Origin: an uncultured Thermococci archaeon
GTDB lineage: Archaea; Methanobacteriota_B; Thermococci; Thermococcales; Thermococcaceae
Reading direction: 5' to 3'
Length of the DNA: 23,421 nt
Assembly (NCBI GenBank): GCA_964615185.1
Contig: CAZTOS010000034.1
Coordinates: 1 to 23,421, forward strand
Of this stretch, positions 18,807 to 21,296 are shown piece by piece. Both the position numbers and the translations under genes were made by a program. The notes beneath the pieces are model-generated. The model was given only the letters and a program-made list of their open reading frames with translations, was not told the DNA's origin and ran no database searches. How positions within the stretch are numbered: the stretch's first letter is position 1; each line of letters opens with the position of its first letter.

Positions 18807-19775
18807 ATGGCATTAGTTAAAGAGGTCTACGAAATTGCTGAAAAAATTAAGAGCATGGAAATCAGAGGAGCAGGAAAGATAGCCAGGTCTGCAGCTCTTG
18901 CTTTGCAGATACAAGCTGAAAAAAGCAAGGCTAAAACTGCAGATGAGCTCTGGAAAGAGCTGAAGGAAGCAGCAAAGCTTTTACATTCAACGAGACCAAC
19001 TGCCGTTTCTCTACCAAATGCTTTGAGATACGTTATGTATCGTGGTAAAATAACGTATCAAGATGGAGCAGACATAGAACAGCTAAGATTTATTGTTATA
19101 AACGCTGCAAAGGAGTTTATTCATAACTCGGAGAAAGCCATAGAAAGGATAGCAGAATTCGGAGCAAAGAGAATTGAAGATGGGGACATAATAATGACCC
19201 ACTGCCACTCAAAAGCAGCAATCGGAGTTATGAAGAAAGCTTGGGATGAGGGAAAAGACATCAAGGTGATAGTTACGGAAACAAGACCCAAGTGGCAGGG
19301 TAAACTGACAGCGAAAGAGCTCGCAGAGGCTGGAATTCCCGTAATTTATGTCGTTGATTCAGCAGCAAGGCACTACATGAAGATGACCGACAAAGTTGTC
19401 ATGGGTGCGGACAGCATAACAGCCAACGGAGCTGTGATAAACAAGATTGGAACTGCTTTGATAGCTCTAACAGCCAAGGAGCACAGGGTTTGGGTGATGA
19501 TAGCAGCTGAAACATACAAATTCCATCCAGAAACAATGCTTGGCCAGTTAGTGGAAATTGAGGAGAGGGACCCCTATGAGGTTATTCCAAAAGAAGAGCT
19601 TGAAACCTGGCCAAAGAACATAGTTGTCAAAAATCCAGCATTTGACGTTACGCCTCCAGAATACGTGGATGTCATCATAACTGAAAAAGGTGTAATACCA
19701 CCGTATGCAGCAATTGATATATTAAAGGAAGAGTTTGGCTGGGCTTTCAAGTATACAGAACCTTGGGAGGATTAA
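18807..19775 (+). CDS. Ribose 1,5-bisphosphate isomerase (eIF-2B-like, AMP/NMP degradation)
   Basis: [23 protein letters not shown] (catalytic Cys), [26 protein letters not shown]. Confidence 0.93.
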
Positions 19776-20272
19776 AGGAGCTTTTCAATCCGCTTTCTTT
19801 CACTTTTGTCTCTTAAATTGAGCAGATATATAACCACACCCTTTCCATTCCTCGCTTCTTTGCCACGATAAACATCTTGGGCGAATGTTAAAACAAACGC
19901 CTCTTTGATGTGGAATTTTAGAGCACCAGTCTTAGCGGAGTTAAGCAGGTGAAGGTCTTTTCTTCCAACTGGCTCACCTTTGACATCGAACTCATGCTCT
20001 TCTGAGGGTACTTTTCTGGATTTTGCTTTAATTGCTCTTAACAACTGGAAAAATTGAGGACGAATTCTTTTCCGCCGAACTTCTGTTCTAACAGTCTCAA
20101 TATGCCGAGAGTACTCCTTCGCAGTCTCCTTGTTAACCACTATGACGACAGAGTCATTTTTGAGGAGTTTCATAAGAACCTCATAAGCAGTCTTCGTCTC
20201 TTCATCAGCACGAAGATCTTTCTCGGCTTCAAGGGCGTATCTAAGCACATTGGTATCAACGACGACAATCAT
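19772..20272 (-). CDS. PIN-domain protein (putative RNase toxin/effector)
   Basis: N-terminal [10 protein letters not shown], helix Glu (KEYSRH), KDLHLL, LTFAQD; GAGGTGA RBS overlapping the upstream ATPase stop. Confidence 0.75.
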
Positions 20273-20281
20273 TGAATCACC

Positions 20282-21247
20282 TCAAGCTTTCAGCCAGTCA
20301 AGGAAAGCGTCAATGTCTGCTTCCAGAAAGTCTTGGAGATTGCCTTCAATGCTTCCGTCTTCATGGACTTTGAGCTTTTCAAAAACTGATTTTCCGTGTT
20401 CTTTTCTCGAAGAGTAGATGGTGAGGTCGTTAGGCTCCAAACGCTTATTGGCAACTGCATTGAGGAAACCATAGAGCAGATGTTCGGAGTGAGTCTCGAT
20501 GATTAGCTGATAGTCCCTCTTCTCTGAAACCATCACCAGAAAGTCAGCAAGTTCATACTGAAGCTTTGGATGAAGGTGCATCTCTGGGTGCTCAATGAAG
20601 ATTGTGCTACCCTTTGGATAGAAGGCCAAAGCGACGACGATAGGAAACAGTGCACTTAGTCCAGCACCAGCATCTGCGAGGTTGACATCAACCCCTTCAG
20701 GAGTTGTTGCAATTATCTCATACTCGCCAGCTCTCTCCGTAGGAACCCAACGGACGTTATGCAATCCATACTTTGAGTAAAATTCACGAATCATGTCAAC
20801 ATTTTCCTGAAATTCAGAGCGATAGCAGGCATAGTAGAAGAGCTGATGGGCATTCTCTGTGTTTACTAACTCGGGATTAGCTAGGACATTTCTCAAGGTT
20901 CGAGTTATTTTTCTAAGTGAGGTTAGGACATGAAGTATCTTCTGGGTGGCATCAAGGTTACCCTGTGCTGATCTTGTAAACTCAGGAGCTTTGAATTCAA
21001 CTGAAATGAAGGGTGTATCCGAGAAAAGTCCCAGAAAGCGAATTTTTCTTTTTGTTTCATGCATATAAACAACTTTTTCAAACTCTCCCCTTGTGAATGG
21101 ATACCACTTACCAGTCAACATTCCAAATGCTTCAAGGACTGAACTCTTCCCGCTTCCATTCGGTCCAATGAGGAGATTAACCTTTGAAAACTCAAGCTCA
21201 GCCTTCTCGATTGATTTATAATTTTCAATCAGCAAACGGGTCAGCAT
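20282..21247 (-). CDS. ABC-type/AAA_21 ATPase (SMC/OLD-like, DUF3696-like C-terminus)
   Basis: IENYKSI, GPNGSGKS (Walker A), AGAGL signature, IFIEHPEMHLHP (Walker B/D-loop), IETHSEHLL (H-loop); start ATG 21247 after GGTGAG. Confidence 0.85.
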   Translation of the reverse strand: MLTRLLIENYKSIEKAELEFSKVNLLIGPNGSGKSSVLEAFGMLTGKWYPFTRGEFEKVVYMHETKRKIRFLGLFSDTPFISVEFKAPEFTRSAQGNLDATQKILHVLTSLRKITRTLRNVLANPELVNTENAHQLFYYACYRSEFQENVDMIREFYSKYGLHNVRWVPTERAGEYEIIATTPEGVDVNLADAGAGLSALFPIVVALAFYPKGSTIFIEHPEMHLHPKLQYELADFLVMVSEKRDYQLIIETHSEHLLYGFLNAVANKRLEPNDLTIYSSRKEHGKSVFEKLKVHEDGSIEGNLQDFLEADIDAFLDWLKA

Positions 21248-21281
21248 GAGGCTCACCACTTCTGTATTCTTGAGCTGATGG

Positions 21282-21296
21282 TATTTAAGAACTTTG
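21282..21296 (-). promoter_or_regulatory. BRE-TATA promoter candidate for the ATPase-PIN operon
   Basis: Minus strand CAAAGTT-CTTAAATA, about 35 nt upstream of ATG 21247. Confidence 0.5.

Follow-up and report, generated by a model that had tools for sequence, protein, structure and literature searches.

A linked accessory ABC ATPase–PIN gene pair of Thermococcaceae and its likeness to the HEC-03 defence design

ABC ATPases encoded next to a separate nuclease are the basis of PARIS (AriA–AriB; PMC11464382), whose effector is a TOPRIM protein, and of Septu (PtuA–PtuB), whose effector is an HNH protein. The available text on PARIS describes AriB alone as only mildly toxic and dependent on AriA for activation (PMC11464382). 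HEC-03 (Hma-embedded candidate 03) combines an ABC ATPase with a VapC-like PIN protein and, according to the accessible part of the preprint, protects E. coli from phages, with both genes being needed (Payne et al., bioRxiv 10.1101/2024.01.29.577857). The ATPase is called A and the PIN protein B in that text, whereas the PADLOC models (PDLC04147 for PIN, PDLC04148 for the ATPase) carry the reverse naming. Menshen (NsnA–NsnB–NsnC), reported from bacteria in the accessible portion of its description, contains a PIN fold that is predicted to dock on the tails of the NsnB ATPase (PMC12065111).

The window analysed here is the whole stretch of 23,421 nucleotides from an uncultured Thermococci archaeon (contig CAZTOS010000034.1). 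The initial annotation had described an ABC-type ATPase gene followed after 9 nt by a PIN gene, with a TATA candidate of its own and no VapB-type antitoxin alongside. All of this was confirmed, as both minus-strand open reading frames are present with their motifs (Table 1). The cassette lies between two core genes that we take to be flpA and the R15P isomerase gene (names not derived from a scan). It is co-directional with flpA, and the stop codons of the PIN and isomerase genes overlap by 4 nt. A longer ATPase frame of 361 aa with a TTG start at 21367 found no support, because the relatives all start at the methionine of the 321-aa frame and two runs lack 1 nt at 21341. Of 17 cassettes, 15 have the motif TTA[AT]A 36–44 nt ahead of the ATPase start (shuffled sequences: mean 1.0, maximum 5), a distance window that was picked after inspection of the sequences; the sigma-70 promoter scan is inapplicable to archaea. 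This positionally conserved TATA box, together with the GGTGA sites of both genes, suggests that the pair likely forms its own operon. Only frames of 21–42 aa overlap the 116-nt gap to flpA, and no small VapB-like frame was found beside the cassette. Searches for direct or inverted terminal and target repeats at the cassette ends gave nothing convincing.

Table 1 Features of the ATPase–PIN cassette, numbered from the first letter of the window.
Feature	Position	Strand	Remarks
Whole accessory cassette, 1576 nt	19772..21347	-	Flanked by the R15P isomerase gene and flpA, each with its 3' end towards the cassette
ATPase gene, 321 aa	20282..21247	-	Compact ABC ATPase (SMC/OLD-like), AAA_15/AAA_21, related to NsnB and HEC-03B
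PIN gene, 166 aa	19772..20272	-	VapC-fold, PIN_3-like predicted nuclease
Spacer from ATPase to PIN gene, 9 nt	20273..20281	-	Contains the GGTGA site of the PIN gene (from sequence)
Predicted archaeal promoter	21281..21297	-	TATA-like TTAAATA at 21288-21282 with an upstream purine-rich stretch, presumably a BRE
Ribosome-binding site GGTGA of the ATPase gene	21253..21257	-	From sequence; relatives have similar sites
Hypervariable, swappable ATPase insert, residues 41-130	20858..21127	-	Candidate sensor

Elsewhere in the window, Rfam and ARAGORN detected only tRNAs, namely two tandem genes at the contig start (positions 1-139), the first cut off and the second a tRNA-Gly(TCC). A low-GC stretch holds a 138-aa open reading frame without a Pfam match, whose N-terminus may be too long (13017-13433). 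Positions 13677-16055 encode a KaiC-like double-domain ATPase (named from its sequence); next come a NitrOD5 protein (5e-33) and a 238-aa frame without a Pfam match.

The ATPase carries the motifs GPNGSGKS (residues 28–35), IEHPEMHLHP (218–227) and ETHS (251–254) and matched Pfam AAA_15 (4.7e-30). Its best PADLOC match was NsnB (3.3e-45, residues 1–309), followed by HEC-03B (1.6e-40) and AriA (4.8e-34); the match to the HEC-03 ATPase profile consists of two stretches. The structural model (pLDDT 89.7) retrieved OLD, PtuA, Rad50 and SMC heads at 1e-13 with Foldseek. Pfam DUF3696 (PF12476) was not matched at E ≤ 0.1, though the tail aligns by eye. In a core tree of 38 rows with a weakly supported backbone, eight cassette ATPases formed a long clade of their own (100/100) that included neither the four NsnB rows nor the four rows of HEC-03 type.

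The partner protein has the PIN fold in its model, with four conserved acidic residues, and is a predicted nuclease. Residues D6, E53, D106 and D133 as well as T129 are intact at the usual PIN positions; E53, D106, T129 and D133 are invariant in all 14 members compared and D6 in 13 of them. Pfam gave weak PIN matches only, and PADLOC weak PIN matches to PDC-M11A and PDC-M07B. The model (pLDDT 86.3) retrieved VapC 7vwo with Foldseek (prob 0.99), aligned structurally with VapC/PIN proteins (Z 9.4, rmsd 4.0, 129 residues aligned) and resembled PIN_3 in an Atlas comparison (TM 0.6–0.66). The family is small, with 12 clusters at 50% identity among 1.84 billion, and its distant clusters were named as Asgard archaea and ANME-1.

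Both folds and the PADLOC matches support the earlier assignment to the sensor-ATPase plus nuclease layout of the PARIS and Septu class. Like these systems the cassette pairs an ABC ATPase with a separate nuclease, and its ATPase folds like PtuA; it differs in having a PIN effector rather than TOPRIM or HNH and in an ATPase without long inserts. The layout cannot count as new, since an ABC ATPase with PIN is already HEC-03, validated in E. coli. With HEC-03 the cassette shares the order of two genes, ABC ATPase then VapC-like PIN, the lack of VapB and the alignment of the first three PIN acids (D6, E53, D106). The ATPase match to the HEC-03 profile PDLC04148, in two stretches and second to NsnB, leans towards likeness. 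In contrast, the cassette ATPase is shorter (321–361 versus about 460–490 aa), has IEHPE rather than EQPE as Walker B, lacks the DUF3696 match and belongs to the separate clade. The cassette PIN also misses the HEC-03 PIN profile (PDLC04147; window copy at E ≤ 1, none of the 14 members at E ≤ 0.1), and the cassette is archaeal wherever its source is named. As the PIN protein misses the profile and the shorter ATPase stands in its own clade, we regard the cassette as a variant and not as HEC-03 by profile, likely an archaea-specific form of an already described design and no new kind of system.

A profile-positive HEC-03 pair does occur in one Thermococcaceae genome (G018, L018:929-2916). It comprises a 486-aa DUF3696 ATPase, to which the HEC-03 ATPase profile aligns from end to end (1e-83), and a 164-aa PIN protein that is distant from the cassette PIN (profile–profile 89.6%, 57 columns; first three acids aligned). 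This genome was the only one of 133 from the phylum with a match to the HEC-03 PIN profile, which did not match the window's own genome (G000). At three of three plasmid HEC-03 loci (L240:3073-3672, L241:3042-3734, L242:3040-3741) an RNA ligase gene (PF09414) directly follows the HEC-03-profile PIN gene, a hint of RNA breakage and repair, whereas no RNA ligase gene stands beside the cassette. Operons that combine PIN_3 with ligase, ATPase and HNH are mentioned in the accessible text of PMC5499597. Related long ATPases at three further loci (L243:696-3513, L244:897-3519, L246:1086-3547) have other partners of 304–352 aa, one matching PDC-M55B and two matching no PADLOC model, which points to effector exchange in this ATPase group.

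The likeness to Menshen consists of NsnB as the best profile, a similar ATPase length, a GxG signature motif and a partner with a PIN fold. Membership fails, because there is no NsnA (ParB/DUF262) gene and because the PIN protein stands alone and keeps its catalytic acids, whereas NsnC is an inactive PIN fused to a C-terminal nuclease. Furthermore, the NsnC profile matched neither the window PIN nor 14 members, and the ATPase did not group with the four NsnB rows. A VapC fold with four acidic residues also recalls VapBC type II toxin–antitoxin systems; here and at the relatives' loci, however, the partner is an ATPase and no small DNA-binding antitoxin is present. Within the available text of the literature searched (including PMC12988326 and PMC5499597), we found no account of the archaeal family. 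Krishnan et al. 2020 (ABC ATPase classification), Makarova et al. 2011 and the HEC preprint supplements (PDC-M07, -M11 and -M55 domain tables) lay outside the scope of this search and may list it or bear on it.

The PIN profile was detected in 11 of 97 Thermococcaceae genomes (counts include G000), and the ATPase gene adjoined it in all 11, being split over a contig end in G106. An ATPase search (E ≤ 1e-15) returned 14 of the 97 genomes, comprising these 11, two fragments without PIN and the unrelated longer ATPase of G018. Both fragments are N-terminal pieces (G033, L016; G030, L017) that retain the first ~95 codons and the TATA box at a different site, and a full-length version is present in the database (P0046). 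Among 80 retained metagenome loci, 12 are close; all of these have PIN directly downstream, whole or broken, and some are the same DNA as genome loci. The remaining 68 had no PIN-profile match. A second archaeal class had PIN in 4 of 96 genomes, two with the ATPase upstream and two ending at a contig edge. The gene pair is conserved together, as the initial annotation required, and its presence is patchy. All 7 congeners examined lack the cassette at this site, where flpA and the isomerase gene abut at about 40–60 nt. The cassette is covered by contigs from four vent runs. Three of these runs (from three studies) also contain a joint from 19771 to 21348 that omits positions 19772-21347 between near-identical flanks, so filled and empty forms coexist. 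No PIN match was found in 72,556 plasmid records. Plasmid relatives of the ATPase were only 24–38% identical, the nearest full-length ones being Menshen NsnB, and no close relative was present among the viral-contig matches listed (80 loci).

The cassette had been called foreign, which holds insofar as it is accessory and mildly atypical in codon usage (9th and 5th percentile among 1507 open reading frames). The host-like GC content of the ATPase and PIN genes (0.43 and 0.42, genome 0.41) and a long residence in the family argue against it. A tree of the ATPase core from the cassettes placed G000 outside genus g3 (98/95), and saturation at the fourfold sites of this core equals that of host genes (26–41%). 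Three g3 copies share 52–59% of fourfold sites with the PIN gene, whereas the figure for the core and host genes is about 30% (Fisher p 5e-5, 1e-3, 5e-3; counts rebuilt from rounded percentages). The PIN/isomerase junction likewise resembles these three copies and not the congeners. We rejected a recent arrival of the entire cassette from g3, because the ATPase core lies outside g3 and has diverged as far as host genes. The cassette is best read as an old resident of the family, often lost, whose parts would be exchanged between copies by homologous recombination.

Carriers from other genera have it in the same neighbourhood but in other orientations. It adjoins nop5 or flpA in most Thermococcaceae carriers, with flpA, nop5 or enolase as the gene upstream of the ATPase, and other contexts were seen at L046 and L055–L057. 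PIN proteins such as Nob1 and Utp24 act in RNA processing and ribosome maturation, and this neighbourhood, with the co-directional flpA in the window, would suit an accessory factor for these processes that works with nop5–flpA. We consider such a role very improbable, given that the orientation to nop5–flpA varies between genera (divergent, convergent or tandem), that the pair has its own predicted promoter, that the PIN profile is absent from 86 of 97 genomes, that other contexts occur and that the site accepts unrelated cargo. In genus g3 the R15P isomerase gene is often separated from nop5 by inserts, and of 20 such regions 15 contained cargo, 2 were empty and 3 rearranged. By reading the sequences, 13 of the 15 were assigned membrane-anchored or secreted proteins and 2 a phosphoglycerate mutase-like gene. 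The membrane-anchored family (13 of 20 g3 regions, L128–L142) is conserved at its C-terminal end and widely different upstream, and often follows a secreted protein that reads as cysteine-peptidase-like. Location in a defence island, one of the checks set by the initial annotation, was not borne out, as the Thermococcaceae neighbours are core genes and none of the 20 regions held a recognisable defence gene.

Broken copies are frequent. In G106, L051, L055 and the X8 allele a broken PIN gene accompanies a whole ATPase gene; G029, G112 and G133 have both genes broken; and G023 and L054 combine a broken ATPase with a whole PIN frame. The latter two, one a complete contig and the other from a separate assembly that is 99.3% identical, have in common a frameshift at the Walker A lysine, behind which the PIN frame and the TATA box are kept, with T7P in the PIN protein of L054. 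No long G tract indicative of phase variation was seen at the frameshifts. The kept PIN frame suggests that PIN alone is tolerated, although polarity or silencing may also account for it. PARIS is similar in that its effector seems, from the available text, to tolerate loss of the ATPase. Taken together, these observations favour activation over plain inhibition and make it doubtful that the ATPase holds the nuclease inactive, as had been proposed. They also bear on a plain toxin–antitoxin system, in which PIN would be toxic alone and the ATPase an obligatory antidote serving addiction or stress dormancy. The VapC fold with an intact active site in a locus without VapB fits such a system, and PIN loss beside an intact ATPase is the order expected if the toxin goes first; the Walker A frameshift in G023 and L054, with the caveats above, and a hypervariable swapped insert, unexpected in an antidote, make it unlikely. 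Slightly less likely still is a decaying relic or near-neutral cargo without current function, for which the many broken copies and the fragments in G030 and G033 speak. The ATPase core protein is 80–85% conserved while its fourfold sites are saturated, which indicates long purifying selection; the catalytic motifs are all invariant, and the copy in the window is whole.

The most interesting feature of the cassette is the ATPase insert, whose mean identity across 11 Thermococcaceae-type rows was 35%, compared with 81–92% in the other segments. Between G068 and L051, the core is 96%, the PIN protein 98% and the insert 26% identical. The G000 insert is closest to those of G106 and G095 (71% and 64%), while its PIN protein is closest to G086, G065 and G068 (76–77%). 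The insert trees are incongruent and AU tests rejected the cross-constraints (p = 6e-5, 3e-40 and 9e-6), with groups defined after inspection of the trees and a poor insert alignment. The accessible HEC preprint text proposes ABC inserts as likely determinants of trigger specificity (bioRxiv 10.1101/2024.01.29.577857), and by analogy the insert is a candidate sensor.

A predicted complex of two ATPases and one PIN protein scored 0.36 (runs 0.36, 0.31 and 0.65) against 0.00 for the best control, with a contact agreement of at least 74% and a partner pLDDT of at least 74. Of 157 solved pairs 116 passed the threshold, as did 2 of 215 mismatched ones; at 0.60 or below, passes comprised only 18 solved pairs and both mismatches, so that without a prior a pass in the range of 0.36 is more often wrong than right. 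The complex prediction suggested at the outset thus separates the pair from its control and falls in a score range that includes both mismatched passes, so it hints weakly at binding. It fits, without proving, the tail-sandwich model predicted for Menshen NsnB–NsnC.

By analogy with the described systems, we consider it likely that this linked accessory pair acts against viruses or plasmids as a module of the HEC-03 kind. This is favoured by the HEC-03-like layout, the defence-ATPase profiles, the OLD/PtuA-like fold, the strict pairing, the patchiness, the swapped insert and the PARIS-like decay. It is weakened by the core-gene neighbours, the missed HEC-03 PIN profile, the lack of close relatives among the plasmid and viral-contig matches and the weak complex score; neutral or selfish cargo would likewise be patchy and prone to decay. 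In a module modelled on HEC-03, Menshen, PARIS and Septu, the ATPase would bind the PIN nuclease through its C-terminal tail, sense an invader through the swappable insert and then switch the nuclease on rather than simply inhibit it. The PIN protein would cut RNA, probably tRNA or rRNA, and thereby stall the infected cell as an abortive defence. Considerably more speculative, and in our view rather unlikely as a whole, is an archaea-only minimal immune module, invisible to current defence profiles, whose 90-residue sensor insert would be exchanged by homologous recombination as a specificity cassette at a core-gene hotspot. A different viral or plasmid trigger would then be answered by each insert type, and the pair may be a present-day example of the state with two genes and an active PIN that was ancestral to the dead-PIN adaptor of Menshen. 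The surprise is limited, since the design of ABC ATPase plus nuclease, PIN included, was already known. Nevertheless, the ATPase is small and thermostable, and its inserts are naturally swapped on a core that hardly varies, so that it would offer a direct test of the proposal that ABC inserts set trigger specificity.
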